This document shows, piece after piece, positions 1-23,194 of a stretch of 64,000 bases of DNA. The translations under genes were made by a program, and so were the position numbers. A model generated the notes under the pieces. The model did no database searches and was not told where the DNA came from. It worked only from the letters and a program-made list of their open reading frames with translations. Numbering within the stretch: position 1 is the stretch's first letter; each line of letters starts with the position of its first letter. Source of the DNA: Candidatus Gottesmanbacteria bacterium (GTDB lineage Bacteria > Patescibacteriota > Microgenomatia > UBA10105 > UBA927); the NCBI GenBank assembly GCA_023245355.1, contig JAHFKN010000001.1, forward strand, positions 268,596-332,595. The letters are read 5' to 3'.

Positions 1-289
1 GGCCATGGGGTATACCGACGTCACCGGAACCCAAAAATAATACATAAGCATGAGAATGACCGGCAACAGCAGCGTCGTAAGCACGATGATGAGCAACCCT
101 CCGCCGACCGGGGTTCCTGCTTTGTGGTGATGAAATTTATCGAACAACGGAGTACGTTTATTAAACATATCCCGGGTGACCTGCTGCAAGCGTTGCAGCC
201 GCAGATGATACAAAAGCTTGATAAACGGAATAAACAGCACGCTGTGCGCAAGCCAGGAAAATAATACGACCCCAAGGAGTAATTGCATA
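1..289 (-). CDS. mraY: Phospho-N-acetylmuramoyl-pentapeptide transferase MraY, N-terminal part (gene continues beyond window start)
   Basis: Reverse-strand translation from ATG at 289 gives MQLLLGVVLFSWLAHSVLFIPFIKLL...FHHHKAGTPVGGGLLII. Membrane N-terminus and the K(R)GTPTMGG-like motif are typical of MraY. Not in the ORF track because it is truncated by the window edge. Confidence 0.7.
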
Positions 290-292
290 AAT

Positions 293-667
293 TTACAGTC
301 CGAACCGGGAAATAAGCTTCGGCCCCAATATAAAAGCGGCCACAACAAGCGCACCTATGGCTACCGTAAGCATCATCCCTGCCGCGACATCTTTTGCTAT
401 TTTGGCATCAGCACGCCATTCTTTCGTAATCAGATCCGTCATCGCTTCAAGCGAGGTATTTATAAGTTCCGCCGAAAGCCCCAATACGATAGTAAATACG
501 ATCACTACCCATTCGATCGGGCTCACCCCGAGAAACCAGCATAAAAATAGCGCAACAAACGAGAGCGCTATATGTACCCTGAAATTCGGCTGCGTGGTTA
601 CGGCCCACCCTAATCCGCTGAATGCGTTTTTAAACGAAATATGGTGCTGCTCTAAAATCTTTTTCAT
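293..667 (-). CDS. dgkA: Diacylglycerol kinase / undecaprenol kinase family (DgkA-like) small membrane kinase
   Basis: 124 aa, three TM segments, conserved SAELINTSLEAM motif of the DgkA/DAGK_prokar family. Confidence 0.75.
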   Translation of the reverse strand: MKKILEQHHISFKNAFSGLGWAVTTQPNFRVHIALSFVALFLCWFLGVSPIEWVVIVFTIVLGLSAELINTSLEAMTDLITKEWRADAKIAKDVAAGMMLTVAIGALVVAAFILGPKLISRFGL

Positions 668-699
668 ATCCTGATATATGCGTGTCAGCCTCCGTTATA

Positions 700-740
700 G
701 TATAGAAAGTCAGAAACGAAAATACAAACCGGCCCGGTTT
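700..740 (-). terminator. Candidate intrinsic terminator downstream of the femAB-like gene
   Basis: Minus-strand AAACCGGGCCGGTTT perfect inverted repeat followed by GTATTTTCGTTTC U-rich tract, in the 80 bp gap before dgkA. Confidence 0.35.
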
Positions 741-746
741 ATCTTC

Positions 747-1811
747 CTAATCATATCCCTTGAGCATTCTTCTTATCGTCTCTATGGTTCTGGTTATCCG
801 GTACAGGGGGGAAACCGGTAAATCCTGCGCATGCAGATATTCGACTAACCGGCCCCCGAAACCGGTTTTGAACAACGTTATCCCCCGCCACGGGTGATTT
901 GGACTGTTTTGAGGAGCAATTCCCCAAAAATTGTACACGTTCATTCCCCGTTTTTTCGCCTCGGTTATCGCTTCCCACTGGATTGCATATGAAACCGGAG
1001 ATTTAGACGGCAATGACGCTCCGTGGTGGTAAATTGCCTGGTTCCCGTAATACAAAATGATTGCGGAACCGATGGTTTTTCCGTCCGCTTTTCCTACGTA
1101 CAACATCGCCTGCTTTTGTCCGGCAAACACTTCAAATTCTTCCCGGATGCCGCCATGCGGCACGAATCCGTGACGAGCACTGGTGGAGGTATACAGATCA
1201 AAAAATTCCGTTAGATGCTTGGGGTCCGTCGTAGAATACACTTGTATCTGTTCTTTGGCAGCCCGTCTGATCTCATAGCGCGTCGTTTTCCTCATGGCGG
1301 ACAGCAGCTGTTCTTCGGAAGCCCCCAAATCCAGCACCCAACAATATTCACCGTCCATGCGGTGAATTGATGCAGGAAGCAACCCGAACGACCGGAAAAA
1401 CGCCTGATTGGCGGATGTATCTTCCACGAGCGGATTAAGGCGCACGAACCAGCATCCCAGACGCTTGGCTTCAGAAGACAAAAATGCAAGAACGCCTTTC
1501 CACAGCTTTGCATCCTGAGAAGCCAAAACGGGCCCATGGCGGACATGGAGAAATGATCCTCTCCGTGCACGGACGAGGCATGCCTGAATCACGCCGACAA
1601 GCACATCTTTTTTATAGACACCGTACCGCAAAACCGTCACTCCTGCCCGTTTCTGTACTTCTCCCCATAACCAGCTTTGGAATAACGCCTGGGGGGACGA
1701 ACGGAGCACAAACAATTCCCATGATGACCGGTCCTCAAAAACCTCAAAGCGGAGTGACATACCGCTATTGTACGTGAAAGCCGATCTCATCGCCAATTGT
1801 CGTTTCCTCAC
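747..1811 (-). CDS. FemAB-family peptidoglycan interpeptide-bridge aminoacyltransferase (FemX/MurM-like)
   Basis: 354 aa; overall length and context (dcw cluster) fit the FemAB fold family. Assignment by family-level resemblance only; real start may be an internal Met. Confidence 0.6.
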   Translation of the reverse strand: MRKRQLAMRSAFTYNSGMSLRFEVFEDRSSWELFVLRSSPQALFQSWLWGEVQKRAGVTVLRYGVYKKDVLVGVIQACLVRARRGSFLHVRHGPVLASQDAKLWKGVLAFLSSEAKRLGCWFVRLNPLVEDTSANQAFFRSFGLLPASIHRMDGEYCWVLDLGASEEQLLSAMRKTTRYEIRRAAKEQIQVYSTTDPKHLTEFFDLYTSTSARHGFVPHGGIREEFEVFAGQKQAMLYVGKADGKTIGSAIILYYGNQAIYHHGASLPSKSPVSYAIQWEAITEAKKRGMNVYNFWGIAPQNSPNHPWRGITLFKTGFGGRLVEYLHAQDLPVSPLYRITRTIETIRRMLKGYD

Positions 1812-2400
1812 CGTGCCCGGGCATCAGCCTGGTTTGAGCAGGATACGACAGTATCCGGCGCACGGAGGCAGCAAGCGTAAGGGGGCTCGCATACGAGTGG
1901 TCCGTTCTGCCGACAGAGCCGTTTGCAAATATAGTATCTCCCGTAAACAGCACACCCGAATGTTTTTCGTACAGGCAAATGCTCCCCGGCGTATGGCCCG
2001 GCGTATGAAGGACCGTAAGACGCACGGCTCCTGCCGCTATAATCCCGCGGTTGGCAAGTTTCCGGTCGACAGACGGCGCGGGGTCGACATATCTAACTTG
2101 CAAAAAATGTTTTGCGGTCTCTTCCATCCGATCTACAAGAAACGTATCGAGAGGATGAATGGCAAACGGGATGCCGAATCCCAGCTTGAGCGCATACGCT
2201 CCCATAATATGGTCGAAATGTCCGTGGGTAGCGACGATAAGCGCCGGCCTGATGCGCAACTTAAGAAGCGTGTCGCTTATATATTCCGGATCATCACCGG
2301 GATCGATAATAATTCCCTCGTGCGTATCCGGATCGGAGACAATGTAGCAATTTGCAGCCATCTGTCCCACGGCAAGCGTTGTGATAACAGGTTTTTTCAT
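1765..2400 (-). CDS. MBL-fold metallo-hydrolase (beta-lactamase-like)
   Basis: HGHFDH metal-binding motif, TPGHTPGS, typical MBL core; start placed at MKKPVITTL to avoid overlap. Confidence 0.8.
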   Translation of the reverse strand: MKKPVITTLAVGQMAANCYIVSDPDTHEGIIIDPGDDPEYISDTLLKLRIRPALIVATHGHFDHIMGAYALKLGFGIPFAIHPLDTFLVDRMEETAKHFLQVRYVDPAPSVDRKLANRGIIAAGAVRLTVLHTPGHTPGSICLYEKHSGVLFTGDTIFANGSVGRTDHSYASPLTLAASVRRILSYPAQTRLMPGHGEETTIGDEIGFHVQ

Positions 2401-2439
2401 GTGATAAGTAGGCGACTCTCTCATGAGCACAGAGAGAGA

Positions 2440-3411
2440 TTAATCGGCAAAAATTTGCGTAAACATGAGTCCGTATATCCCGCCGTCAACGATACCGATT
2501 CCGATCCGGTGAAACCGCGGCTCCAATATATTTTTCCGGTGGCCTTCGCTTGCCATAAGCCCCTGATGTGCGCTCGCTACATCGGGCGCATAGGCGAGAT
2601 TTTCCCCGACCAATGTAAATTTTACATTCGCGTCATTCATTCGGTCGGCCGCGTTTTTTCCTGCGGGGTCATAATGTGAAAAATACCGCTGCTCAAACAT
2701 GTCCGTGCTTTTACTGCGGGCGACGGCTGTTATGGCGACATCCGTACGGAGCTCGGGGATATTCAGACGGACCCGCTCTTTGTTAACCAGCAATATCATT
2801 TCTTTTTCCAGATCTTCACGGACGGTAAATTTGGATTTTTTCTGTGGGATATCCAGAGGGATCCGCTCGTTTGAGCCGGGCTCCACCGTCAGAAACTTAA
2901 GCGCTTCCCGGCTGATTTCTTCAAGTGAAGACTCCATATTCCCTCCGTACCGGTCAGACATGACGACCAGCCTGCTTCCTATGACGGATTGCCGTATATC
3001 CTGTTTGATGGAACCCCGGAGCGGCAACGATAAGGCAAGAAGCAGGAAAAACGCGATAACGAGCAATGCATTACCGGAAGAAAGCAATCCTCCTAACCAA
3101 TGATTTGCCTTTGACGAACTGAGTTTTTCCGGCAGGCGGTCCACAGCATACAAAAGCAGCGACTCGATGAGAATCTGCGACACGAAGGCAACCGCAATAT
3201 ACCCCAACACATTTGTCCATGAAGCGGGAGCACCGAATTTTTCCGTAAAAAAATTTCCGACAGGAGTGTGAAACCGGATCGCCAGCCATAACGATATGAG
3301 GAACGACCCCATATTGGCAAGCAATGAAGTAAACCCGCGCTGCCATCCGTCATATACCGCATAGCAGATAACAGCGATAATGACCCAGTCCACCCAGTTC
3401 GGCATATACAT
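2440..3411 (-). CDS. CvpA-family membrane domain fused to C-terminal CAP/SCP (PR-1-like) extracytoplasmic domain
   Basis: N-terminal 4-TM CvpA-like region (MPNWVDWVIIAVICYAVYDGWQRGF...), C-terminal GHRKNIL...IGIGI motif of CAP domain. Start trimmed to MYMPNW to abut upstream gene. Confidence 0.65.
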   Translation of the reverse strand: MYMPNWVDWVIIAVICYAVYDGWQRGFTSLLANMGSFLISLWLAIRFHTPVGNFFTEKFGAPASWTNVLGYIAVAFVSQILIESLLLYAVDRLPEKLSSSKANHWLGGLLSSGNALLVIAFFLLLALSLPLRGSIKQDIRQSVIGSRLVVMSDRYGGNMESSLEEISREALKFLTVEPGSNERIPLDIPQKKSKFTVREDLEKEMILLVNKERVRLNIPELRTDVAITAVARSKSTDMFEQRYFSHYDPAGKNAADRMNDANVKFTLVGENLAYAPDVASAHQGLMASEGHRKNILEPRFHRIGIGIVDGGIYGLMFTQIFAD

Positions 3412-4649
3412 TATGTTACACCCAATAATGAAATGATGCGCTTTGCATCGCGGGAAGGAATCAGCGTCGGAAGATTGATAATCGTTTTGGCAGCCTGTTC
3501 TGCTTGCGGACAACTTCCTGGTGTATATCCGACGGCGCGAAAATCCGTGCCTGCAGGATCGATAATATTGTGATACCAATTTCCCAACAGAATACCGCGC
3601 TTTTTGGCATCCGCCAGTATGCGTTCCGGTTCAGACAGCAGAACCGGATACCGCAATAACGACGCCCCCCGCACCTCCGGCGGCAATACTGCTTCAGGAC
3701 GTGAAAGCTGCTCCGTATACATATTGGAAATTTTTTGCCGCTGCTTCACATACCGGTCCAGTTTATTGAGCTGACCTAAAAGTAACACTGCCAAGGCATT
3801 GGGGTATTTCGCAGGAAAATCAGCCGGACGTTTTCCCAACTTTTCCTCCCGATATACGGGAACGGAAAGTGCGTGTAATTTCTGCAACAGGACAAGCAGC
3901 GCTCTCCCTATCCCGGATCCATACAGCGGGATAATGACGGAAAACGCGACCGGGTGGAATACCTGCTGTAATGTCCAGCTCCCGCGCGGAAACCGGAGCG
4001 ATGCATGATACCGCCTCATATGTGCAAACGCCGGCTCGTGTGATGCATGAATCACCGCTGCCCCGCCCCACACACTGGAAACCGCCTTGTCCCGACCAAA
4101 ACTGAAAAACGCCGCGTCACCGAGCGTTCCCAGTTTCTTCCCCTGATACTTTCCTCCTAACGCATGGGCGCAATCCTCGATTAGCAGGATGTTGTGTTTT
4201 TTTGCAAGTACCTGCAACCCATGCATATCAGCCGGAATACCGAATGTATGCTGGGCGATTATTGCTTTTGTTTTCCGCGTTATCTTTTTTTCTACATCAA
4301 CCACATCCAGATTGTATGACGCATCGATATCCGCATACACGGGAGTCGCTTTAGACCACAGGACGCTGTTGGGTACGGCAACGCAGGTAAATGCCTGGAC
4401 GATAACCTCGTCTCCCTTTCCGATATCAAATGCCTGCAGGATAGCGAGTAACGCGCTGCGCCCGCTGTTAAACAATGCCACATGAGAACAGTTAAAGTAA
4501 TTCCGGAACCATTGAGCAACTTTATGAAGATCGGTATTCTGAAACCATTTCCACGGGGATAGGGCTACCGACAGCGCGCGCCATACGTCATCCGCTTCCG
4601 TATTCGGGGAAAGAGACGCCGATATAACACGCCGCAGATATATATGCAT
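3411..4649 (-). CDS. DegT/DnrJ/EryC1/StrS-family PLP-dependent sugar aminotransferase
   Basis: 412 aa; FSFGRDK(A) lysine motif region, AHALGG, fold-type I aminotransferase pattern typical of nucleotide-sugar aminotransferases. Confidence 0.75.
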   Translation of the reverse strand: MHIYLRRVISASLSPNTEADDVWRALSVALSPWKWFQNTDLHKVAQWFRNYFNCSHVALFNSGRSALLAILQAFDIGKGDEVIVQAFTCVAVPNSVLWSKATPVYADIDASYNLDVVDVEKKITRKTKAIIAQHTFGIPADMHGLQVLAKKHNILLIEDCAHALGGKYQGKKLGTLGDAAFFSFGRDKAVSSVWGGAAVIHASHEPAFAHMRRYHASLRFPRGSWTLQQVFHPVAFSVIIPLYGSGIGRALLVLLQKLHALSVPVYREEKLGKRPADFPAKYPNALAVLLLGQLNKLDRYVKQRQKISNMYTEQLSRPEAVLPPEVRGASLLRYPVLLSEPERILADAKKRGILLGNWYHNIIDPAGTDFRAVGYTPGSCPQAEQAAKTIINLPTLIPSRDAKRIISLLGVT

Positions 4650-4654
4650 ATAGC

Positions 4655-6256
4655 TTATACCAGAATATTCAGGGTATGTTCCGTATCTTTCCCCTTAAAA
4701 AGCACGGTATCGCCTTTCCCGATGTGGCCGCGTATATAGGCAGCCGCCTGAACCGGACTGACAACCAGCACCGGCACGTCGCGGGACACACGCCGCACCC
4801 CGCGCTCAAATGCCTCCTTATAACTGTCGTTGGTAAGGAGTATCGCGTCACATGCCGCCCCTGCAAGCGCCCCCACCTCCTCGTGAGAACGTTCCGCATA
4901 CGTTCCCAACTCTATCATCGGTTGGAATACGAGTATTTTTTTGCCCTTTTGTCCCTGCAAAAATGCGATGGCTGCGCCCGCTGCATCCGGATTATTATTA
5001 AACGTATCGTCGACAAAAACCGCGCCCTGTATACCGGGAATTACCTCCATCACTTTATGCGCCGCCTGTATCCTGGAAGCGGCCGCGCACGCCTTTTCCA
5101 GTGTGAGACCGCCTGCAACGGAGGCGGCAATAGCTGCCAGTATATTTCCGGCCTGATGGATACCGACGACAGGCGAAGAAACGTGCTCTGTCGTTTTACC
5201 CGATGTACAGTCGAATTCCACCCCGTGTATATCCGTGCGTATTTTCGAAGCACGAAACAGATGATCTCCTGCTATTCCTTTATATGCATGCAAGGCGCCG
5301 CGTGTGGTCCAGCCCCAAAGCTGACATCCGTCGCGGATTGCCCATGTACCCATCGTGCGCGTTTTCTCATCGTCCAGATTCACAATGGCAATCTTTCGCC
5401 CGACCAGCCCCTGAATCAGTTCATATTTTGCCTGCATCGTAACTTCGATGGATCCGAACAAATCCTGATGCTGCGGATTGATCGCCGTAAGCACACCGAT
5501 TTCCGGTTTTACCATGGTTGCCATATACCCGATCTCTCCCCGCTTATATGCACCCATTTCCACGATAAACGCCTGGTGCGCGGACGAAAGCGAGCGGAGT
5601 ATTGTTTCGGCAATCCCGATAGGTGAATTTTTGCTCGCTTCGGTTTTGAGTGTCACTACTGAACCGGAAAGTATCGATGCCAGGTATTCTTTCACGGATG
5701 TTTTTCCGTAACTTCCCGTGATTCCGATGACAGTCATCGGTGCATGATGCGAAAGTGCGCGGACGGCACGGCTGATGATACTCATGTGATATACCCTGGT
5801 GGGAATTGTCATTCCCAGCACGACAAGGGCACTAAACGGGAACAACAGCACGTCTGCAATCGTAAGCCCGATAACGGCAGGATACGGCACGCGTACCGCC
5901 AGCCAGACGATAAACAGAACCAACATAGCACCGAGCACAATCACTTTCGGAGAAACAGGCGGCAGATGCCAGTGCCGGATGCGGCGCACATATGTGATTC
6001 CCAGTACACACAATCCGGCGGAAAACAGAATCTCCGTAACCGGCTTATACGGCAGTACAAACCATGCGAAAGCCGCAATAGCCAGCATGATCCGGGTGCG
6101 GCCCATGACAACCGTACCCCCTTGTTTGGTCCGAAGATGTATCATCATCCGGTCCCAACGGTATTCTTTACGCCACCACAAAAACAACAGGCCGGAAACC
6201 GTGTATCCGAAACGGAGCATGAATCCTAAAATCCCCAGCAGCGATGCAATTTCCAT
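4655..6256 (-). CDS. murF: UDP-MurNAc-tripeptide--D-Ala-D-Ala ligase MurF with ~170 aa N-terminal polytopic membrane domain
   Basis: GITGSYGKTS P-loop, Mur ligase middle and C-terminal domains; N-terminal 4-5 predicted TM helices replace the usual soluble N-domain. Confidence 0.8.
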   Translation of the reverse strand: MEIASLLGILGFMLRFGYTVSGLLFLWWRKEYRWDRMMIHLRTKQGGTVVMGRTRIMLAIAAFAWFVLPYKPVTEILFSAGLCVLGITYVRRIRHWHLPPVSPKVIVLGAMLVLFIVWLAVRVPYPAVIGLTIADVLLFPFSALVVLGMTIPTRVYHMSIISRAVRALSHHAPMTVIGITGSYGKTSVKEYLASILSGSVVTLKTEASKNSPIGIAETILRSLSSAHQAFIVEMGAYKRGEIGYMATMVKPEIGVLTAINPQHQDLFGSIEVTMQAKYELIQGLVGRKIAIVNLDDEKTRTMGTWAIRDGCQLWGWTTRGALHAYKGIAGDHLFRASKIRTDIHGVEFDCTSGKTTEHVSSPVVGIHQAGNILAAIAASVAGGLTLEKACAAASRIQAAHKVMEVIPGIQGAVFVDDTFNNNPDAAGAAIAFLQGQKGKKILVFQPMIELGTYAERSHEEVGALAGAACDAILLTNDSYKEAFERGVRRVSRDVPVLVVSPVQAAAYIRGHIGKGDTVLFKGKDTEHTLNILV

Positions 6257-6257
6257 A

Positions 6258-6977
6258 TTACCGGTGCAAAAAATCTTCTATGTAGGACATAAATATTTTC
6301 GGATGCTTAAACGGAACGCCGTGATCTTCTTCCGGTATCACTTTCAATACTGCCGTGGTTATGGATTCCTGCATACGCCGTGCGATGGCAACCGGCACGA
6401 TCACGTCAAATTCTCCCCATACGAGCAAACAGGGAATTTTTATCGTGGCCATGGCGGACGTGAGATCATCCTGTACGACATATTTAAACGTTTGGCCCAT
6501 CGTGCCTTCGGCACGGATAAATTCGCGCGCCCCGGCCAGATAATACAAAAACCGCCGTGCCCGGTCCGCCATAAGATTGAGCATCGGAAGTGCAAACAGC
6601 AGGCCGCCTATTTTGGAAACGACGAGAAAAAACATCAGCTTTTTCGTCGGTACCGGACTGAATCCCGGCGTTCCCGTCAGAATAAGTTCACGGACATCAT
6701 CCGGATACAGCTGGGAAAATTTCAGTGCGACCCTGCCGCCGAACGAATGCCCGATGATGACGGGGTTACGGATATGATTTTTTTCAACATATGACTTCAA
6801 AAACTCCGCATAATCCACCACATGCCATGGTTTGGCCGGCGGCGGTTCATCTCCGAAACCCGGCAAATCCGGCGCAAACACGCGATGACCGGATTTTATA
6901 AGCAGCTCGGATAGCGGGGCAAACCGCTTACCCGATAAATTCCACCCATGCAGGATAATAATATCGTCTGATTTCAT
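6258..6977 (-). CDS. Alpha/beta-hydrolase fold protein
   Basis: GHSFGG nucleophile elbow, 239 aa. Confidence 0.75.
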   Translation of the reverse strand: MKSDDIIILHGWNLSGKRFAPLSELLIKSGHRVFAPDLPGFGDEPPPAKPWHVVDYAEFLKSYVEKNHIRNPVIIGHSFGGRVALKFSQLYPDDVRELILTGTPGFSPVPTKKLMFFLVVSKIGGLLFALPMLNLMADRARRFLYYLAGAREFIRAEGTMGQTFKYVVQDDLTSAMATIKIPCLLVWGEFDVIVPVAIARRMQESITTAVLKVIPEEDHGVPFKHPKIFMSYIEDFLHR

Positions 6978-6991
6978 AAAAACTGCGGGGA

Positions 6992-9636: not shown

Positions 9637-9638
9637 AG

Positions 9639-10619
9639 TTAAAATTCTCCTACCCGCACGATCTCTTCTTCCAGCTCTACGCCGAATTTTTCATGAACTG
9701 CTTTCCTTGCTTTTTCAATTAATTCTACCACGTCGGCGGCTTTTGCATTTTTGAGGTTAATAATGAAATTGGCATGTTTTTCGGATATCTGCGCATCTCC
9801 GATCCTGTCCCCTTTAAGCCCCGCGTTGTCGACCAAAAATCCGGCGGATGTCGAAAGATTCGGCGTAGAAGCGGTAAGCGCTGCAGCTTTCGAAATATTT
9901 TTAAATGTACATCCTGCGGAAAGAACTCCCTGCGGCTGTGTTTCCCTGCGGTACGATATGCTGGAATTTGCTGTCTCCCACAGCTGGTCTTTCGCTTTTT
10001 GCATGAGTGCAAATGTGACCGAAATGACGATGTCTCCGGTTTTTTGGAGCGCGCTGTAATCGTACGCAAAATGAAAATAGTCGCGGGATACCTGACGCAC
10101 CTCACCTGTGGGAGTGACGATTGTCGCCTGATACACGACATCTCCGACATTCCCTTCGGGTTTCGTCCACTTCGAGTTCATAAACACTGCTCCCCCGACA
10201 CTTCCCGGAAGTCCCAGCTGCATTTCTATGCCGGAGAGTCCTTCTTCTATCGAAAAGCGCACGAATTTATTCATGGGAACACCTGCATCCACCTCAACAA
10301 AGACCGTCCGTGTGGTGCTGCCGGATTCCATGGTTCCCTTAACACCCCGTATGGAAATACCCTGCGAAGAATTCCGTATGACAAACGCACGGATCCCCTT
10401 ATCACCGATCAGCACATTGGTTCCGCCGCCCAAAACAAAAATCGGCAACTTGGATTTGCGCCCCAACGATACTGCTGTCACAAACTCATCGCGGGTTTTC
10501 GCGTCGAAAAAGTAATCCGCGGGTCCGCCGATTTTAAACGTCGTGTACCGGGCCAGCGGTTCGTGTTCCTTAAACCGGTCACCGAATGCTTTTTTCAGAT
10601 CATTGATATGTGGTTCCAT
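9639..10619 (-). CDS. murB: UDP-N-acetylenolpyruvoylglucosamine reductase
   Basis: FAD-binding LGGGTNVL motif, C-terminal GCTFKN...ISEKHANFIIN MurB C-domain. Confidence 0.9.
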   Translation of the reverse strand: MEPHINDLKKAFGDRFKEHEPLARYTTFKIGGPADYFFDAKTRDEFVTAVSLGRKSKLPIFVLGGGTNVLIGDKGIRAFVIRNSSQGISIRGVKGTMESGSTTRTVFVEVDAGVPMNKFVRFSIEEGLSGIEMQLGLPGSVGGAVFMNSKWTKPEGNVGDVVYQATIVTPTGEVRQVSRDYFHFAYDYSALQKTGDIVISVTFALMQKAKDQLWETANSSISYRRETQPQGVLSAGCTFKNISKAAALTASTPNLSTSAGFLVDNAGLKGDRIGDAQISEKHANFIINLKNAKAADVVELIEKARKAVHEKFGVELEEEIVRVGEF

Positions 10620-10625
10620 ATATAG

Positions 10626-12041
10626 TTACAGCGTTTCCGAAACGCTTTTTACTACATCCCTTTCCCAATTATAAATGTCTCCCGCTCCCATAAAAATTAC
10701 AACGTCCCCTGTCGACAGGTGCGCGGCAAGTGTTTGAGACACCGCAGCAGAATCTTTTGCATACAGAACGCTTTTATGATGATTCGATACCTCGGAAACG
10801 AGCGTCATGCCGGTTATTCCCAGTGTTTCATGTTCGCGGGCAGACGCATATATATCCGTAAGGACGACCGTGTCAGCATCGGTAAAACTCGTACCGAACT
10901 CGGAAAGCAATGTTTTCGTACGCGAATATGTATGCGGCTGAAACACGGCAATGATGCGCTGCTTGGGAAACCAAGTGTGCGCGGCCTTCAGCGTTGCGGC
11001 AATCTCCGCCGGGTGATGCGCATAATCGTCATAAAACGTGATGCCTGATTCGGTCGCAATCAGTTCGAAGCGGCGTTTCGTTCCAGTAAAGCGCAACAGT
11101 CCTTCGCGGAGCGCTTCCCATGAAGCGCCCGCCGTATGGGCCGCTATCATGGCTGCGACGGCGTTGGCGACATTGTGCATACCGGGAACTTTGATCGCAA
11201 ACTCACCTAATAAAACGCCACGCTCCTCCACCGTAAAAAACATCCGTCCGTCCCCGACGCCGACATGACTGATATGGAAATCCGCCGCAGGGGAAAAACC
11301 GTAGGTGATAACCGTTCCGGAAGACGCAAGGACCCGGCTGTTAGGGTCATCGCTGTTTATGATAACCAGCCTGCTTTTTTTCTGAAGTGCGAGGAATGCA
11401 TCCTGTACAGCACCAAGGCCCGGATACACATCGGGGTGATCATAATCAATATTGGTAACGACCAGAATGTCCGGCGTCAGCCAGAGAAACCGGGGGGTAG
11501 GATCGTGCGTCGGATCGGTTACATATTCGTCCCCCTCGGCGACAAACCATTCCCCGTCACCTTTTTTTCCTGCGGCTCCCAATCCCGGTATGGATCCGCA
11601 ACCGATCGCAAAACTGGGGTGGTACTGCGCGTATGAAAGCAGTACGGCAATCATGGCGCTTGTCGTCGTTTTCCCGTGACTTCCGCTCACTACAATCTGA
11701 CGCGTATCTTTCATGATGCTTCCGAGTGCCTCACCGTGCGGCATAACCGGAATTCCCATGGAAACTGCCTGCCGGACCTCCGGATTATCGCGTCCTCCGT
11801 GCGCTCCGGTATAGTAGACGGCATCGGGCGTATCCTTACCCTGCAGCCTGGACGCATCAAACCCGGAATATACGGTAATACCTTTTATACGCAGTTCCTC
11901 CTGCGTCGGAAAATCTTCCGGCACGTCAGAACCGGTCACCCGCACTCCCGATTGCGCTAGGTAAACGGCAAGGGAGGCCATGGCCACGCCTTTGATTCCT
12001 ACCAGGTGCACATGTTTTTTTATACGCGCATGTTCTTTCAT
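10626..12041 (-). CDS. murC: UDP-N-acetylmuramate--L-alanine ligase
   Basis: HLVGIKGVAMASLA N-terminal MurC motif, Mur ligase central/C domains. Confidence 0.85.
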   Translation of the reverse strand: MKEHARIKKHVHLVGIKGVAMASLAVYLAQSGVRVTGSDVPEDFPTQEELRIKGITVYSGFDASRLQGKDTPDAVYYTGAHGGRDNPEVRQAVSMGIPVMPHGEALGSIMKDTRQIVVSGSHGKTTTSAMIAVLLSYAQYHPSFAIGCGSIPGLGAAGKKGDGEWFVAEGDEYVTDPTHDPTPRFLWLTPDILVVTNIDYDHPDVYPGLGAVQDAFLALQKKSRLVIINSDDPNSRVLASSGTVITYGFSPAADFHISHVGVGDGRMFFTVEERGVLLGEFAIKVPGMHNVANAVAAMIAAHTAGASWEALREGLLRFTGTKRRFELIATESGITFYDDYAHHPAEIAATLKAAHTWFPKQRIIAVFQPHTYSRTKTLLSEFGTSFTDADTVVLTDIYASAREHETLGITGMTLVSEVSNHHKSVLYAKDSAAVSQTLAAHLSTGDVVIFMGAGDIYNWERDVVKSVSETL

Positions 12042-12048
12042 AGTCGTA

Positions 12049-12768
12049 TTATGACACTAATCCGATAACGCCGATTATTTCGCCGAATGTTTCCCTGCTG
12101 TCCTTACGAAACGAATAAAACGCATCGATCTGGCAGGACGTACAGACAATGGGCGCATCTATATGGTCCGGTACAATACCGGCATCCAGCAGCTCGAACC
12201 TGTTTGCCTGCCCGATATCCAGATGCCACTCTCCGTTTTCTTTTGCTGCAACGGGAGGCACTGTATTAAACGTCGCGAGAAATTGCTGCGCCCGACTTTC
12301 AGGAACCGTATAGCAGCACCCGCCGATATGGGGGCCTATTGAAACCAGAATATTTTTAGGTGTTGCCCCCGACTCAGTCATGCGGGCGACTGCGTTTTTT
12401 GCTATGTGTGCCAGAGTCCCTTTCCAGCCGGCATGAACAGCTGCTACAACCCGGGCCACGGGATCAAAGAATAACATCGGCACGCAGTCAGCTACATGGA
12501 CTTCCAGTAAAATATTATCGGTGCCGCTTACCAATCCATCTGCCAGAGGGACAACACCCGTTGTCGCGCTGTCAACAATTGACACCGCATTTCCGTGAAC
12601 CTGGGCCGCATGGAGCAACGGCAATGCCCGGTCTGTCAGATTCCGTACAATCATGTCTGTATTGGTTCTGATTCTTGCGTCCCCCAGCGCGCGTGTGGAA
12701 TATCCGTGCACAACACCCGGAAGTGTGAGCAGCGAAGAATACCGTATGCCGTTTTTCTGTGTCATCAT
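12049..12768 (-). CDS. pgeF: YfiH/PgeF-family (DUF152, laccase-domain) peptidoglycan editing factor
   Basis: 239 aa, GVVHGYSTR...VHG...H..W.G motifs characteristic of the YfiH/PgeF family. Confidence 0.7.
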   Translation of the reverse strand: MMTQKNGIRYSSLLTLPGVVHGYSTRALGDARIRTNTDMIVRNLTDRALPLLHAAQVHGNAVSIVDSATTGVVPLADGLVSGTDNILLEVHVADCVPMLFFDPVARVVAAVHAGWKGTLAHIAKNAVARMTESGATPKNILVSIGPHIGGCCYTVPESRAQQFLATFNTVPPVAAKENGEWHLDIGQANRFELLDAGIVPDHIDAPIVCTSCQIDAFYSFRKDSRETFGEIIGVIGLVS

Positions 12769-12795
12769 GATAGATACCTAAAAACTATCCCTGTG

Positions 12796-13971
12796 TTATG
12801 TACGCCGTTTCAGCAGTTTCCTTATTTCTTCCTGGTCGCTCCAGGGGTATTCTTTCGTACCTCTGCACAGACTTTTTTCGTGTCCTTTACCGGTTGCTAT
12901 CAGGATATCGCCGGGACGGGCCTGCGAGAGTGCAAATACGAGCGCATCCTTGCGATTTGGGAATCTGTGCACCTCTTTATCCGCCGGTATGCCGGAAGAA
13001 ATTTCGTCCATAATCGTTTCGACGTTTTCCGTCCGGTAATCCTCTTCCGTCAACACGATCACGTCGCTGTAGGTTGCCGACGCTTTCCCCATAAGCGGAC
13101 GTTTCGTAGCATCCCGTAGTCCTGCACTGCCGAATACGTGTATAACACGTTTTTTGGTCATGGCACGCACAGTAGAGAGCGCACTCACTAGCGCGTTGGG
13201 CGTATGCGCAAAATCCACAATCACGCGGAAGGGTTTTTCCGAGATGACTTCCATTCTGCCGGTCACGCCGGGAAACTGCGCTAATGCAGCTGCTGCAACT
13301 TTACGGTTCACGCCCAACACGTCGGCGACAGCCAGCGCGGCAAGAGCGTTATAGCGGTTAAATTCCCCGGGAAGCTTTGTCCTGAACGGAAATGTTTTGG
13401 GGTTGACCATGCTGTCCCGGCGTATGCCGTAGGTGACATACCGCTTCTTCTTGAGCATCGGCATGCTGGCCATATATGTGCCCGCTTCATCGCGGTTGAT
13501 CACGGCAACTTTGCTTTGTCTAAGAAGCGTAAGCTTGGTCTTGAGATAGTTTTCGTACGTCCCGTGCCAGTCCAGGTGCTCGTGCGTAACATTCGTAATC
13601 ACCGAGACATCGAAACGGACGCCGAACACGCGGTGCTGCGACAGTGCGTGACTCGTGACTTCAAGCACCATATGGGTATCGCCGTGATTTACCGCCTCCC
13701 GAAGATACTTTTGTACCCACCACGCGGACGGCGTCGTCACATGGAAACCGGTATCGTAGTCCCTTCCGGCAATCGTGGCATGTACGGAGGTGATTTTGGA
13801 CGCTTTATACCCGGCACTCTTTAATATTTCGTATATGAGTGTGGTTGTGGTCGTTTTACCGTCCGTCCCGGTCACCCCGATCACGGTAAGCTTACGGCTC
13901 GGAAATCCGAACCAGCAATTGGCTACGATTGCCACCACCAGATGATAGAGCCCTTTGAGGCTTCGGAGCAT
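12796..13971 (-). CDS. murE: MurE-type Mur ligase (UDP-MurNAc-L-Ala-D-Glu--diamino acid ligase) lacking the usual N-terminal domain
   Basis: VIGVTGTDGKTTTT P-loop, DFAHTP, GSAGLRDATKRPLMG, LTEEDYRTE (DNPR-like) and ATGKGHE C-terminal motifs match MurE; only 391 aa. Confidence 0.75.
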   Translation of the reverse strand: MLRSLKGLYHLVVAIVANCWFGFPSRKLTVIGVTGTDGKTTTTTLIYEILKSAGYKASKITSVHATIAGRDYDTGFHVTTPSAWWVQKYLREAVNHGDTHMVLEVTSHALSQHRVFGVRFDVSVITNVTHEHLDWHGTYENYLKTKLTLLRQSKVAVINRDEAGTYMASMPMLKKKRYVTYGIRRDSMVNPKTFPFRTKLPGEFNRYNALAALAVADVLGVNRKVAAAALAQFPGVTGRMEVISEKPFRVIVDFAHTPNALVSALSTVRAMTKKRVIHVFGSAGLRDATKRPLMGKASATYSDVIVLTEEDYRTENVETIMDEISSGIPADKEVHRFPNRKDALVFALSQARPGDILIATGKGHEKSLCRGTKEYPWSDQEEIRKLLKRRT

Positions 13972-14057
13972 GTGTGTATTATACCAAAAATATCCGTGCG
14001 AAGAGCAAAAGAGCCACGCTTTGATCAGCTTCAGACTACTCTCGGAAATCCGTCGTG

Positions 14058-15740
14058 CTATTGCGGAGGGATTGCCCAGTAGGTAAACAGGTCACGGGCA
14101 ATGGTAAAAAAGAGCGGAGCTGCCGTTTCCGACCCCCACTGTGAAGAGGAGGGCTCCCGAAGGGTTACCAGCATGACAAACCGCGGCTTGTCAGCAGGCG
14201 CAAAACCGACAAATGAGGCAATTGTTTTCTTATCGTCATAATGCCCGGCCACAGGAATCTGAGCAGTACCGGTTTTCCCCGCCACCCGATATCCTTTAGG
14301 CTTGGCCCATTTGGCCTCCCCGTTATCAACAGCCGACACCATCATTTCGGTGACTATTCGGGCGGTTTCCGCACTCACCACCTGCAAAGACACTTTCGGA
14401 GGCACCGCTATGGTTTTTCCTTTGGATTCGCGGATTTCCTTCACCATATGCGGCTCCATCATACGGCCGCCGTTAGCCAATGCCGCAATCGCCCTGACCA
14501 TCTGAATCGGTGTCACGGCGATACCCTGTCCGAACGAGGCGGTGTATTCATCGACTTCTGCCCAATCTTTGTCTGCCCGAAGTTCCGGTGACGATTCGTC
14601 TTCCAGGTCGATATTAGTCGGCTTCCCGAATCCGAAGCGCCGTATGGCAGACAGCAGCTTCTCTTTCCCCAGTTTTTGCGCAATAAATACCATACCGACG
14701 TTCGAGGAATTCTCCAATACCTGCGTCATGGTAATCTTGCCGTGATATTGGTTATTCCATGTCCGTATCACGTACGGGCCTATCTGTACCGGTCCTGACT
14801 CGTCCATTGTGGTATCGGGAGTTATGAGTTTTTCGTTGATGGCTGCCGCCATAATCAGCGCTTTGAATGTACTTCCGGGCTCAAACGCACTCCCGACGAC
14901 GGGATTTTTATAGAGGGACTTATCAAACTCCGAAAACCGTCTCGGGTCATAGTTCGGGAACGACGCCATGGCTAGTATCCCACCTGTTTCGGGATTCATA
15001 ACCACTACGGATCCTTCTTTGGCTCCGTACCGCTCAATTCCCTCTTTCAGTTTCCGCTCCACTATCTGCTGTACCACTTTGTCTGCGTGCAATATAAGCG
15101 TCCGTCCGTCTTCCGGCGGGAGCCGTTCTTCGGAGCCGATAAGAATCGGCGCGCCGTGCGCATCTTTCTCGAGTCTCATCATGCCGTCTATCCCGCGCAG
15201 CTGCCGGTCATAGTACCCTTCCAGCCCGAAATACCCCTGATCAACGCCGTTTACGTCACTGCCGACAAACCCCAGCAAATGTGCGGCGGTAGACGCTTCG
15301 GGATAAAACCGCTTCGGCTCTTTTTCAAACCCGAGCCCCAAAATATTCTGTGTACGCAGTGTCTGCACTTTGGTAAGTTCCACTTTGTGCGCGAGCGGCA
15401 CCCAAACCAAGTTCGGCTGGGCTAATTTACTTGCTACTTCCATAGGGTCCAGGGCAAGTTCTCCTGCCACGATTTTAGAAAATTGCGGAATATCTTTGAT
15501 GTTGCGGGGTTCTCCGTATACCAGGTAGGAAGGCTGATTGACGACCAGCGGGTTGTTCCCGTAATCCATGATTTCTCCTCTGGCGGCCGGCACGGTAAGC
15601 TGAACGAAATGCTGGCGGGAGGCTTCTTTCCCCAGACGGTCAGCGGAAAATATCTGCCAATAGATGAGGCGGAGCATCAATGCGGCAAACCCTATGACAA
15701 AAGCGCCAAAGAGTACGGAGGAACGCTGTGGAGTGGCCAT
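14058..15740 (-). CDS. ftsI: Penicillin-binding protein / division transpeptidase (FtsI-PBP2 class)
   Basis: N-terminal TM anchor, PBP dimerisation domain and transpeptidase STFK, SSN, KTGT motifs. Confidence 0.85.
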   Translation of the reverse strand: MATPQRSSVLFGAFVIGFAALMLRLIYWQIFSADRLGKEASRQHFVQLTVPAARGEIMDYGNNPLVVNQPSYLVYGEPRNIKDIPQFSKIVAGELALDPMEVASKLAQPNLVWVPLAHKVELTKVQTLRTQNILGLGFEKEPKRFYPEASTAAHLLGFVGSDVNGVDQGYFGLEGYYDRQLRGIDGMMRLEKDAHGAPILIGSEERLPPEDGRTLILHADKVVQQIVERKLKEGIERYGAKEGSVVVMNPETGGILAMASFPNYDPRRFSEFDKSLYKNPVVGSAFEPGSTFKALIMAAAINEKLITPDTTMDESGPVQIGPYVIRTWNNQYHGKITMTQVLENSSNVGMVFIAQKLGKEKLLSAIRRFGFGKPTNIDLEDESSPELRADKDWAEVDEYTASFGQGIAVTPIQMVRAIAALANGGRMMEPHMVKEIRESKGKTIAVPPKVSLQVVSAETARIVTEMMVSAVDNGEAKWAKPKGYRVAGKTGTAQIPVAGHYDDKKTIASFVGFAPADKPRFVMLVTLREPSSSQWGSETAAPLFFTIARDLFTYWAIPPQ

Positions 15741-15780
15741 GAATGTATCCTACCATGTTTCCGCGCCCATGAGATCGGAA

Positions 15781-16104
15781 TTACTCGAGAGGTAACCTGG
15801 CCGGAACATCTGACCGGTTTAAGGCCACCGGAACTTCTAAACTAAGACTGATAATCTGCTTTGCTGTCGGGTCGACAAACCCCTGAGCCTGCGCGCGCTC
15901 ACGGATAACCAACAGAGATGAAGCGGATGCCACTTCGGTCGAAAGTGCTTCACGCATATCCGCTTCTATGCGGACCTGCTGATCTAATTTTCCCAACCGT
16001 TTTCCGAGTGTGGCCAATTCATTGGATACGACGACCTGAAGAACGACTAATGTGATTGCAGCAACCGGAAGAAGAAATCCAATGATACGAATAATGTTTT
16101 TCAT
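15781..16104 (-). CDS. ftsL: FtsL-like small bitopic division protein
   Basis: 107 aa, single TM then coiled-coil-like segment, positioned between rsmH and ftsI as in canonical dcw clusters. Confidence 0.5.
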   Translation of the reverse strand: MKNIIRIIGFLLPVAAITLVVLQVVVSNELATLGKRLGKLDQQVRIEADMREALSTEVASASSLLVIRERAQAQGFVDPTAKQIISLSLEVPVALNRSDVPARLPLE

Positions 16105-17042
16105 ACTGCTTTTTTTACCGCGACGCGCATCTTTGCGCTTCTGCTGCGTATGTTTTCGTTTATTTCCCCTTCAGTCGGACGTACGGGATGCTTGGAAACA
16201 CTCTCCCATATATCCTGCCGCATATACTGTTTTACAATCCTGTCTTCCAGCGAGTGGAAGCTGATTACTACCAATCTGCCTTCCGGCTTTAACACGTTGT
16301 ATGCGCCTTTGAGTCCGTCCCGTAAACTCCCCAACTCATCGTTTACCGCTATCCGAAGCCCCTGAAACACTCTCGACAATATTCCGTACCGGGCACCTTC
16401 ATTCGGTGCGACTGTTTTTACGGCTTCGATCAAATCCCTCACCGTAACAATCGGCTTCACCGAACGCGCGCGGCAAACAGCGTCAGAAAGCTTCCGAGCC
16501 AACTGTTCTTCGCCATACGTGCTAAAAATGTCATACAATTCCTCCGCGCCTGCACGGTTTACCAATTGGGCAGCAGTGTCTCCTCCGGACTGATCAAGTC
16601 TCATATCCAGTGGAGCATCGGTAAACCGGTAACTGAATCCCCGTTCGGGTGTATCTAACTGCATACTCGATACGCCCAAATCAAACAAAATTCCGCTTAC
16701 GTTTATAAATTTCTGTTCCCGTGCTATCGTCTCTATATTCCGAAAATTCCCGTGTATTAATTTCCATGCTCCCTTTGAAACAAGTGTATTTCCCTCTCTC
16801 TCCAGTCGGTCCCTGGCAATATCGAGTGCTTTCTCATCCTGGTCAATGCCGAGCAATACGCCGCCCCGTTTCACTATTTCCAATCCGTGTCCGCCTGCTC
16901 CCGTGGTCGCATCGATATAGGTATTTCCCTGCGTTACGTTCAGCGCGTCGATTGCTTCCTGTATCAACACCGGCGTGTGGGGGATTCCGTTCATACAGCC
17001 TCCAGTTTTGCAGCGTATTGTGTCCACCGCGCCGAGTCCCAA
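16101..17042 (-). CDS. rsmH: 16S rRNA (cytosine1402-N4)-methyltransferase RsmH (MraW)
   Basis: HTPVLIQEAIDAL...YIDATTGAGGHG signature; likely true start at internal MNGIPHTPVL (about 16994). Confidence 0.9.
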   Translation of the reverse strand: MGLGAVDTIRCKTGGCMNGIPHTPVLIQEAIDALNVTQGNTYIDATTGAGGHGLEIVKRGGVLLGIDQDEKALDIARDRLEREGNTLVSKGAWKLIHGNFRNIETIAREQKFINVSGILFDLGVSSMQLDTPERGFSYRFTDAPLDMRLDQSGGDTAAQLVNRAGAEELYDIFSTYGEEQLARKLSDAVCRARSVKPIVTVRDLIEAVKTVAPNEGARYGILSRVFQGLRIAVNDELGSLRDGLKGAYNVLKPEGRLVVISFHSLEDRIVKQYMRQDIWESVSKHPVRPTEGEINENIRSRSAKMRVAVKKAV

Positions 17043-17392
17043 ATCTCAAAATGGTCTCCTGCTCCGATAACCTTGACTTCGCGGGCGATCAGACCGTGCT
17101 CTTTAAGCTGTGCGGGCAGTAAAATACGGCCAAGTTTGTCTATGTCGACTTTTTGCGCTCCAGCAAAGAGGTAACGGCGGACCTGTCGTCCTTTTTCATC
17201 GGTTACCGGTGTGTCAAGGTGCTTTCCCGCTTCCCGTTCCCAACTCTCTTTATCAAATCCGAAAATACATCCCTCATATCCCCTGGCGAGTACTAATTCC
17301 GTTCCTGTGATCTCTTGCCGAATCTTTCGTGGGAGCGTTACGCGGGCCCGATCGTCTAAACTATGGTCGTATTCTCCTAGGAACAAGTTCAT
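16991..17392 (-). CDS. mraZ: Transcriptional regulator MraZ
   Basis: 133 aa, duplicated DxxxR motifs (LDDRARVTLP / second half), first gene of the dcw operon. Confidence 0.9.
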   Translation of the reverse strand: MNLFLGEYDHSLDDRARVTLPRKIRQEITGTELVLARGYEGCIFGFDKESWEREAGKHLDTPVTDEKGRQVRRYLFAGAQKVDIDKLGRILLPAQLKEHGLIAREVKVIGAGDHFEIWDSARWTQYAAKLEAV

Positions 17393-17470
17393 GGCTCTAA
17401 TCTACCACTTCTTCCCACTAATATCCATAGTTACCCATTTTTCACGCCATGTCAATACCCATTTCACGGG
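17393..17470 (-). promoter_or_regulatory. mraZ promoter region with candidate MraZ-operator direct repeats
   Basis: Minus strand carries a direct repeat CGTGAAA(A)ATGGGTA twice plus further TGGG/TGGN boxes at about 10-12 nt spacing. A TTGACA -35 hexamer (plus 17450-17455) lies 17-18 nt from a weak -10. Confidence 0.4.
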
Positions 17471-17804
17471 TTGTTCTGTGCGTACTTGACGAGCATCAGG
17501 TAAACGAGCGAAAATCTGTGCTATTGTATGGCACACGAAGTGTTGCGCGTTCCGGTTATCAGGACAAGGAGTTCGGCTTCCCGCCGCTACCTGTTTTTCG
17601 AGCACCCGCCCGCGCTATGGATCGCGGATGAAAAAGATGAAGGACACGAGAGGATTTTACGGGCATCAGGGCGCAATAAACCGGCCGCTGCAGGGTGGAT
17701 TCTGGCGTTTCATGACGAACTTCAGGTTGATGCAACAGGCTCAATTGACCTTAACATGCCTACGAAGCACCCGAAAAGCGTATGTGTGTTCATCGCCTCT
17801 CTCC

Positions 17805-17845
17805 CGGGGAAAAGCAAACAACAGATAACCGAACACGGAATCTGA
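17805..17845 (-). terminator. Candidate intrinsic terminator after the glyQS-hypothetical transcription unit
   Basis: Imperfect hairpin CAGAUUCCG-UGUU-CGGUUAUCUG followed by UUGUUUGCUUUUCC on minus strand. Confidence 0.3.
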
Positions 17846-17858
17846 GATTTGCGGTCTG

Positions 17859-23167: not shown

Positions 23168-23194
23168 AATGCCGCACCACATGACCGTTTGGTT

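Follow-up and report, generated by a model that had tools for sequence, protein, structure and literature searches.

The gene array and its continuation

A stretch of 64,000 nt from a Candidatus Gottesmanbacteria genome (assembly GCA_023245355.1, contig JAHFKN010000001.1, positions 268,596 to 332,595; hereafter the window, with position 1 its first nucleotide) carries at positions 1-17392 a dcw gene cluster (for division and cell wall), in which 18 genes form co-directional chains of open reading frames (ORFs) on the minus strand. Gene names were based on an ORF listing combined with Pfam and NCBIfam scans, applying the curated cut-offs of the latter. All 18 genes named in a preliminary description of this DNA were present in the order given there, and their identities bear out its statement that most cytoplasmic steps of peptidoglycan-precursor synthesis are co-localised. 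The best explanation of the locus as a whole, and one we consider likely, is a cell-wall cluster typical of the Gottesmanbacteria lineage, divided into three modules and encoding a peptidoglycan-precursor pathway. Genes overlap or are separated by 1-86 nt at their junctions. From 17392 to 1 they are as follows, with the starts of rsmH and of the CvpA-CAP, metallo-beta-lactamase (MBL) and FemX-like genes refined from gene calls on a matching locus retrieved from another assembly (L063):

16991-17392, minus strand: mraZ, 133 aa (PF02381; TIGR00242 108.6 bits, cut-off 98.35)
16101-16994, minus strand: rsmH, also mraW (PF01795 302 bits; TIGR00006 280.7 bits, cut-off 154)
15781-16104, minus strand: ftsL-like gene for a small bitopic protein, 107 aa (position, size, one N-terminal hydrophobic helix)
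14058-15740, minus strand: ftsI-type class B penicillin-binding protein, 560 aa (PBP_dimer and Transpeptidase, 272.9 bits)
12796-13971, minus strand: murE, short form, 391 aa (TIGR01085 382.6 bits, cut-off 257.3)
12049-12768, minus strand: pgeF, peptidoglycan editing factor of the YfiH family (TIGR00726 154.9 bits, cut-off 141.15)
10626-12041, minus strand: murC, full three-domain form, 471 aa (TIGR01082 402 bits, cut-off 335; PF01225, PF08245 and PF02875)
9639-10619, minus strand: murB (NF010480 265.1 bits, cut-off 259)
8296-9636, minus strand: murA (TIGR01072 455.3 bits, cut-off 393)
6992-8299, minus strand: glmU-like, archaeal-type sugar-1-phosphate nucleotidylyltransferase/acetyltransferase (TIGR03992 213 bits)
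6258-6977, minus strand: abH, alpha/beta-fold hydrolase, 239 aa (PF00561, PF12697)
4655-6256, minus strand: MurF-like membrane ligase, 533 aa (PF08245 121 bits, PF02875 50.8 bits)
3411-4649, minus strand: DegT/DnrJ/EryC1-type pyridoxal-phosphate aminotransferase, 412 aa (PF01041 207.4 bits)
2440-3411, minus strand: CvpA membrane domain with an extracytoplasmic CAP/YkwD domain, 323 aa (PF02674 [Colicin_V] and PF00188; TIGR02909 112.7 bits)
1765-2424, minus strand: MBL-fold hydrolase, glyoxalase-II/YcbL-like, 219 aa (PF00753, Lactamase_B)
747-1760, minus strand: FemX-like aminoacyl-tRNA-dependent transferase, 337 aa, or 347 aa if started at 1790 (PF02388 111.4 bits, cut-off 24)
293-667, minus strand: dgkA-family lipid kinase, 124 aa (PF01219, DAGK_prokar, 103 bits)
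1-288, minus strand: mraY, first 96 codons, running off the window (identity from L063)

The longest rsmH ORF begins at a TTG at 17042; started from the ATG at 16994, rsmH overlaps the stop codon of mraZ in an ATGA. The name ftsL is a weaker call made from position, size and single-helix topology; the protein has no Pfam or NCBIfam match, and its gene is kept between rsmH and ftsI in 35 related loci.

L063 matches the window with 100% identity over 10,667 nt and reaches beyond coordinate 1, where it continues mraY (344 aa, PF00953)-ftsW-murG-ftsQ-ftsA-ftsZ, the ftsQ product being a 221-aa POTRA_1 protein (24.7 bits, cut-off 23). From mraZ to ftsZ, 24 genes lie on the same contig. The preliminary description had reported murD, ftsW and murG as absent between murF and mraY, a mistaken expectation given the canonical order murF-mraY-murD-ftsW-murG. 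Both ftsW and murG follow mraY directly in their canonical place outside the window, while the murD gap at this locus is real, mraY on L063 being followed by ftsW.

Conservation across the lineage

Relatives of the cluster were 62 loci retrieved through MurA, against which the window proteins were compared by tblastn. By its MurA relatives the window belongs to Candidatus Gottesmanbacteria (Microgenomates; candidate phyla radiation, CPR), the best loci showing 82-88% identity. The same order is found in 52 of the 62 loci, down to ~60% MurA identity and representing ~50 species-level genomes, a recurrence that on these gene-order comparisons puts the arrangement far beyond chance. Adjacencies are densest at the core (murA-glmU-like in 52 of 52, murB-murA 51, murC-murB 48, glmU-like-abH 46) and remain frequent elsewhere (pgeF-murC 42, dgkA-mraY 41, murE-pgeF 40, femAB-dgkA 37, abH-murF 36). 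An exact-protein look-up also recovered four independent assemblies (two from ENA, two from Logan) with the same genes in the same order. Because these 52 loci and the independent assemblies share the order, we regard it as a lineage trait and neither a chimera nor a private rearrangement. The source is metagenome-assembled and the order is unlike that of model organisms, as would be expected of an assembly or binning artefact or of a recent one-off rearrangement; that explanation is already refuted and keeps a negligible probability, given the agreement of the four assemblies, the identity with L063, the core order in 52 species-level loci and the uniform composition of the DNA (GC 0.50-0.53 across 1-18 kb).

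The label 'rearranged' given earlier to the cluster is apt in so far as the order is permuted relative to Escherichia coli and Bacillus, but the arrangement is not idiosyncratic, being shared by 52 Gottesmanbacteria-type loci. It had also been raised that the order might prove widely conserved and already described in a known lineage; conserved it is, in these 52 loci, but no full-text description was found of it, or of the domain-1-less MurE and membrane-embedded MurF treated below, in a search that left subscription journals outside its scope and in which absence is no proof of novelty. More distant CPR contigs carry other permutations in which the Mur genes are still clustered, such as murE-pgeF-murC-murB-murA-ddl-murF on L047 and murB-murA-mraY-ftsW-murG-ftsQ-ftsA-ftsZ on L051, with further variants on L076 and L077. 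On L047, which is not of Gottesmanbacteria, the cluster stops after murF and is followed, at a distance of a few kb, by a fragment of an IS1595-type transposase (L047:18531-19133). Two Gottesmanbacteria-type loci (L017 and L050) have no murE, ftsI being followed directly by pgeF, and neither murF nor murD in the cluster, which suggests that Mur ligase genes are individually mobile or dispensable in the cluster of this lineage.

Promoter-like motifs and putative transcriptional modules

Intergenic spacers of the relatives were aligned and motifs counted per junction, with the other junctions as controls. Conserved promoter-like motifs occur at three positions, which in the window are:

17405-17455, minus strand: promoter-like site of mraZ, with TTGACA at 17450-17455, a 17-nt spacer and AACTAT at 17427-17432
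13978-13986, minus strand: internal promoter-like extended -10 element, TGGTATAAT, ending 6 nt before the murE ATG
699-742, minus strand: femX-dgkA spacer, with a terminator-like hairpin (742-724) and TTTGTA-17 nt-TATACT (-10-like element at 704-699)

Before mraZ, four TGG(G/A/T) boxes with an exact 10-nt period (17405-17437) overlap the -10 element. TTGAC stands at a fixed 58 nt from the mraZ ATG in 29 of 33 relatives, and the four TGG boxes at 10-nt period recur in 31 of the 33. The array resembles what we take to be the direct-repeat MraZ operator of E. coli, and by pattern match the boxes look like MraZ-operator-like direct repeats. At murE, 33 of 37 relatives have a TATAAT, in many cases within TGnTATAAT, whose end is 6-7 nt from the ATG, and in 36 of 37 it is at most 9 nt away, a position that holds even in spacers of only 16-18 nt; such proximity predicts both an internal promoter and a leaderless murE mRNA. 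Of 42 relatives, 39 have TATACT upstream of dgkA; ahead of it, in the window and in close relatives, stands the hairpin, the sole intergenic terminator-like site on the coding strand. The control junctions mostly gave 0-1 matches to the motifs, murB (9/41) and murC (5/45) being the exceptions. None of the inserted genes showed a conserved promoter motif of its own in this junction comparison, and the restriction of such motifs to mraZ, murE and dgkA speaks against the earlier suggestion that the inserted genes might be independently transcribed.

With three conserved promoter-like sites, the array would split into three modules. The first, mraZ-rsmH-ftsL-ftsI, would form the head of the array, with regulatory and divisome genes behind TTGACA/AACTAT and the TGG boxes. 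A second of 12 genes, starting from the murE TATAAT and serving synthesis of the soluble precursor, would comprise murE-pgeF-murC-murB-murA-(glmU-like)-abH-murF-degT-cvpA/CAP-MBL-femX, where murF denotes the membrane ligase gene. The third, dgkA-mraY-ftsW-murG-ftsQ-ftsA-ftsZ, would lie behind the hairpin and TATACT and serve lipid carrier, membrane and division functions.

The spacer before mraZ (17393-17858) measures 466 nt, unusually long for a CPR genome, and ranges from 88 to 2168 nt in relatives. Only its last ~70 nt, containing the promoter- and operator-like sites, are conserved, and the spacer has no Rfam match. It is bordered by a gene for a 161-aa protein (17859-18344) with an N-terminal hydrophobic helix and no family match, which lies between glyS and mraZ in ~22 relatives. 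The ftsI-murE spacers of L011, L032 and L052 are enlarged (429-734 nt) and share a ~60-nt element consisting of a (GA)n run followed by TTGTCAAGCCTATAGTG...TTTTTGG; a related stretch, CTCTCTCTC...TTTTGTCAAG, is found upstream of mraZ in L055. This element may be a small mobile or regulatory repeat.

Mur ligases without the UDP-binding domain

The short MurE has its P-loop starting at about residue 33 and no PF01225 match; NF001126 was matched only from model position 88, and the Thermotoga maritima enzyme (4bub) aligned only from residue 89. With just 86 nt between the ftsI stop codon and the murE ATG, and MurE ORFs of ~390 aa in all relatives, the UDP-binding domain 1 is genuinely absent; a domain 1 hidden by a frameshift or in an upstream ORF was ruled out on the same two grounds. 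In common with MurE of T. maritima and E. coli (1e8c), the protein retains the central and C-terminal domains and scores above the TIGR01085 cut-off. It differs in starting at the equivalent of residue ~89 and in having EDYR at the specificity position, which reads DNPR or DDPR in the meso-diaminopimelate- and Lys-type enzymes. DNPR was taken as the motif for meso-diaminopimelate and D(D/N)P(N/A) as that for Lys; in the alignment with Thermotoga MurE, EDYR falls on DDPR, with the Arg kept and the rest different.

The 533-aa ligase is closest to MurF, with 203.5 bits on TIGR01143 against 68.9 for MurD, 66.7 for MurE and 59.4 for MurC, and the murF slot is where its gene lies. That comparison also ruled out the ligase as a candidate for the missing MurD. 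Its best PDB and Foldseek matches are MurF structures, with ~384 aligned columns at 24-27% identity. E. coli MurF (1gg4) was matched from residue 93 (E 7.5e-50), and residues ~175-533 correspond to the MurF central ATP-binding and C-terminal domains, as also seen in 4qf5 and 3zl8, including the P-loop and the catalytic signatures (E of 'EMGA', H of 'HQDLF' and the 'DDTFNNNP' stretch, as aligned with the E. coli enzyme). The profile was matched only from position 66 and the score falls below the TIGR01143 cut-off of 288.6 bits because residues 1 to ~170 are not domain 1. In its place is a hydrophobic, five-helix membrane domain that is restricted to the lineage and for which no other domain architecture and no fold relative was found. 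AlphaFold modelled the ligase with high confidence (pLDDT 90.5 overall and 95.5 for the N-domain), placing helices at 2-29, 34-41, 44-51, 53-67, 71-91 and 103-122 and a long helix at 127-169 leading into the ligase. A block of residues is invariant in an alignment of 47 sequences (A1): W27, K30, E31, Y32, R33, D35, R36, M37, H40, Q45 and G46; by hydropathy and the positive-inside rule, this basic and aromatic block probably faces the cytoplasm. More than 120 full-length homologues, 44-95% identical, bear the source names MurF, 'Mur ligase family protein' or 'hypothetical protein'.

Domain 1 is likewise missing from the soluble MurF of neighbouring CPR lineages (L029 and L047), so its loss alone does not imply a new substrate. 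The soluble MurF of L029 and L031 (P0256 and P0265; MurF2) is named 'cyanophycin synthetase' in NCBI records, which is probably a mis-annotation due to the missing domain. From its sequence, the membrane ligase would add D-Ala-D-Ala to UDP-MurNAc-tripeptide, as MurF does. Should it prove functional, it would be the first integral-membrane Mur ligase of the UDP-precursor pathway known to us.

Accessory genes and alternative modules

The glmU-like product aligned over its full length with the archaeal GlmU-type dual enzyme ST0452 of Sulfolobus tokodaii (2ggo, 5z09; residues 8-407 against 4-397, E 3e-40), with which it shares nucleotidyltransferase and left-handed beta-helix domains. It differs from ST0452 in being bacterial, in lying next to murA, which its gene overlaps by 4 nt, and in scoring below the TIGR03992 cut-off (292.1 bits). 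Its score on bacterial GlmU (TIGR01173) was 91.7 bits, against a cut-off of 366.85. Its most obvious putative role is the supply of UDP-N-acetylglucosamine (UDP-GlcNAc). PgeF removes mis-incorporated residues at position 1 of the stem peptide, a role which the placement of pgeF directly before murC fits. The closest PDB relative of the FemX-like protein is FemX of Weissella viridescens (1ne9, E 7e-10), a UDP-MurNAc-pentapeptide:L-Ala transferase of similar size (335 against 337 aa) with the same FemAB fold and likewise no coiled-coil insert, though the similarity is weak; on NF047883 (UDP-MurNAc-pentapeptide-lysine N6-alanyltransferase) it scored 44.2 bits against a cut-off of 500. The Schiff-base Lys of DegT aligns with the 'AK' site of QdtB, relative to which DegT has a ~50-aa insertion. 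MBL has PDB relatives 7ev5, 2zwr and 2xf4, and those of abH are generic only. No NCBIfam match was obtained for dgkA. Gram-positive DgkA provides a precedent for undecaprenol kinase activity, and by analogy, together with the adjacency of dgkA to mraY in 41 loci, the same function is probable here.

Architectures were counted in the 42 loci that span the glmU-like gene to dgkA. Thirty encode abH-(membrane murF)-DegT-[CvpA-CAP]-[MBL]-femX, seven abH-DegT-[MBL]-femX, four ddl-murF2-MBL and one MBL only, square brackets marking variable genes: CvpA-CAP is present in 15 of the 42 and MBL missing in 5. The genes abH, DegT and FemX occur together in 37 of 37 loci and with ddl-murF2 in none of four, while ddl was found only in those four murF2 loci and the outgroup L047. 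The slot after the glmU-like gene (after murA in L047, which lacks the glmU-like gene) thus holds either Ddl and a soluble MurF or abH, membrane MurF, DegT and FemX. The preliminary description had proposed that the interleaved genes may modify the precursor. Since two sets alternate in one slot, we posit a functional link between the accessory genes and the end of stem-peptide assembly, and from the co-occurrence pattern abH, DegT and FemX at least would form one functional group. In L038, an AMMECR1-Memo-radical SAM trio in the opposite orientation (14004-16400, minus strand) lies between MBL and dgkA in place of FemX.

The alternative that abH, DegT, CvpA-CAP, MBL and perhaps dgkA are housekeeping passengers with no role in peptidoglycan synthesis appears rather unlikely, if still the strongest of those considered. 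The genes belong to broad families with generic best matches, CvpA-CAP and MBL are the inconstant members just noted, and adjacency alone is weak evidence because CPR genomes are gene-dense and the whole 64-kb window is co-directional. Against this stand the conservation of their positions to ~60% MurA identity, junctions of 1-15 nt lacking conserved promoter motifs of their own, and the strict association of abH, DegT and FemX to the exclusion of ddl-murF2, a module-like pattern at the last stem-peptide steps.

The same alternation bears on the membrane ligase, which could be a new Mur-type enzyme using another donor made with abH and DegT, or a lipid-linked acceptor as MurT does, with the canonical MurF encoded elsewhere or absent. 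A score below the MurF cut-off, the lack of domain 1, a lineage-restricted membrane domain with an invariant motif and the consistent absence of ddl from clusters with membrane MurF would all fit such an enzyme. A parallel is offered by MurT, a member of the Mur ligase family that likewise has no domain 1 and acts on lipid II at the membrane. The MurT of MurT/GatD (6h5e, 7q8e) is among the structural neighbours of the ligase and has the same Mur-ligase fold; unlike it, MurT is a soluble protein that ends in a DUF1727 domain and depends on GatD, whereas the ligase here is MurF-like over its whole soluble part and itself membrane-integral, with no gatD present. We consider a new activity unlikely: MurF is by far the closest family by sequence and fold, the murF slot is occupied, and seven loci keep abH-DegT-FemX without a membrane MurF. 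Moreover, the matches listed in two ligase searches (best 120 each) included no further MurF-type protein encoded on the large contigs of these genomes, the search with soluble MurF2 giving a small family with none on those contigs among its listed matches.

A broader version of this idea is that the last stem-peptide steps have been re-engineered in most Gottesmanbacteria into a non-canonical precursor pathway, to which we assign a similarly low probability. The Ddl-MurF pair, kept in the sister group with (glmU-like)-ddl-murF2, may have been replaced by abH, membrane MurF, DegT and FemX. As MurE and MurF both lack the UDP-binding domain, the ligase might work in the plane of the membrane, where it could hand its product to MraY, accept a lipid-linked substrate or use a donor other than Ddl-made D-Ala-D-Ala.

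The location of murD, murI and ddl

Of 31 informative relatives, 21 have ftsW directly after mraY, nine have murI-murD-ftsW there and one has murI-ftsW. The murI-murD loci show MurD scores of 357-367 bits (TIGR01087), with a gene for an Asp/Glu racemase in front of murD. No further Mur ligase or Ddl was found in the 64-kb window or the 10 kb downstream; the gene content inspected thus covers ~75 kb of a roughly 1-Mb genome. A murD profile built from eight Gottesmanbacteria MurD (alignment A2) was searched against 5.8 billion proteins, and none of the best 120 matches lay on large contigs of the murD-less clade. As these matches all score at least 737 bits and are saturated with MurD of the post-mraY type, they permit no inference on the clade without murD. 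A metagenome scan with the same profile gave only two close relatives among the matches listed, both with murD after mraY.

On distant CPR contigs (L078-L096), murD or murI-murD lies away from any dcw gene, and relocation of murD is therefore the parsimonious reading. We presume that murI-murD and ddl are encoded elsewhere in this clade, with mraY-murI-murD-ftsW and murA-(glmU-like)-ddl-murF as ancestral-looking states in its relatives. True loss of murI, murD and ddl, with a non-canonical stem peptide or wall precursors scavenged from a host, would account for the direct mraY-ftsW junction here and in the 21 loci and for the missing ligase and Ddl genes in the DNA inspected, and it would suit CPR bacteria, which passages of literature citing Megrian et al. 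describe as metabolically reduced. Loss is nonetheless very improbable: MurC, MurE, MurF, MraY, MurG and FemX are intact and conserved, which would make little sense without the D-Glu step, relocation appears to be common in other CPR contigs, and the DNA inspected is a small part of the genome.

A model for precursor synthesis

We hypothesise that the most likely function of the cluster is an ordinary peptidoglycan-precursor pathway, expressed from three transcriptional modules and having a membrane-tethered MurF beside MraY. The archaeal-type GlmU would supply UDP-GlcNAc, from which MurA and MurB would make UDP-N-acetylmuramic acid (UDP-MurNAc). MurC would add L-Ala under proofreading by PgeF, MurE the diamino acid and MurF the terminal dipeptide, with FemX adding a side-chain residue. 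DgkA, acting as undecaprenol kinase, would feed MraY, after which MurG and FtsW would complete lipid II and its use for wall synthesis. In this scheme MurE would have lost the UDP-binding domain 1, and MurF would have swapped its own for the lineage-specific five-helix domain, an anchor that would bring the final soluble step to the membrane beside MraY.

Several points weigh against this model. MurD, MurI and Ddl were not found elsewhere in the genome among the matches listed and the ~75 kb inspected. A generic scan for promoters found 22 sites where 19.7 were expected, a background level, and the putative promoters, leaderless start and terminator were recognised from conserved motifs only. 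The proposed membrane topology likewise derives from hydropathy and the positive-inside rule, and the MurF-, GlmU- and FemX-like proteins score below NCBIfam equivalog or subfamily cut-offs, leaving their substrates putative.

Genomic surroundings

Positions 19926-64000 are also wholly on the minus strand and, besides recO, are dominated by a very large region for the biosynthesis of glycans or cell-surface polysaccharides. This region encodes about a dozen GT1, GT2 and GT4 glycosyltransferases, about eight NAD-dependent epimerases or dehydratases, methyltransferases and a flippase-like Polysacc_synt_3 gene, together with:

20504-22471, minus strand: DUF4012 protein
22532-23182, minus strand: Bac_transf priming transferase
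28636-30078, minus strand: PMT-family protein

Two very large proteins lie among the glycosyltransferases: a 1062-aa protein without a Pfam match (30075-33263) and a 991-aa protein that has a GDSL lipase/esterase domain (38642-41617). Between 42000 and 50000 the GC content is 0.40-0.45, compared with ~0.50 elsewhere, and this segment, which includes a 1171-aa ORF (42597-46112) with no Pfam match on record, may have been acquired horizontally inside the glycan region. Scans of the whole window for tRNAs and Rfam families found nothing.

Comparison with known dcw clusters

The dcw cluster is among the most conserved gene arrays in bacteria; it is used as a marker in phylogeny and also maps the synthesis of the wall. 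For its conservation across more than 1000 genomes including CPR, the literature refers to Megrian et al. (cited in PMC10221324). An analysis of a 17-gene, 'complete' dcw cluster including murA and murB recorded murA inside the cluster in some Firmicutes and did not analyse CPR (PMC8871954). The window adds a CPR lineage with a stable alternative layout, in which nearly the whole soluble precursor pathway falls in one module with an apparent promoter of its own. It also presents three oddities at the enzyme level: MurE has no domain 1, MurF is fused to a novel membrane domain, and the modules of ddl with soluble murF and of abH, membrane murF, DegT and FemX exclude each other. If functional, the membrane MurF would be relevant to the coupling of cytoplasmic with membrane steps and to the way in which ultra-small, host-dependent bacteria acquire D-Glu and D-Ala-D-Ala. 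The MurF- and GlmU-like proteins here, being below curated cut-offs, also serve as a warning for annotation.

The canonical order of E. coli and Bacillus is mraZ-rsmH-ftsL-ftsI-murE-murF-mraY-murD-ftsW-murG-murC-(murB)-ddlB-ftsQ-ftsA-ftsZ. The Gottesmanbacteria cluster has in common with it the head mraZ-rsmH-ftsL-ftsI-murE, the tail mraY...ftsW-murG-ftsQ-ftsA-ftsZ, a single orientation and MraZ-operator-like repeats, and shares with some Firmicutes the presence of murA and murB inside the cluster. It differs in the shift of murC-murB-murA out of the 3' half into the interval from murE to murF, accompanied by pgeF and the glmU-like gene, and in having five to six non-dcw genes plus dgkA between murF and mraY. 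Further differences are the absence of murD, murI and ddl from the cluster and the conserved internal promoter-like motifs at murE and dgkA.

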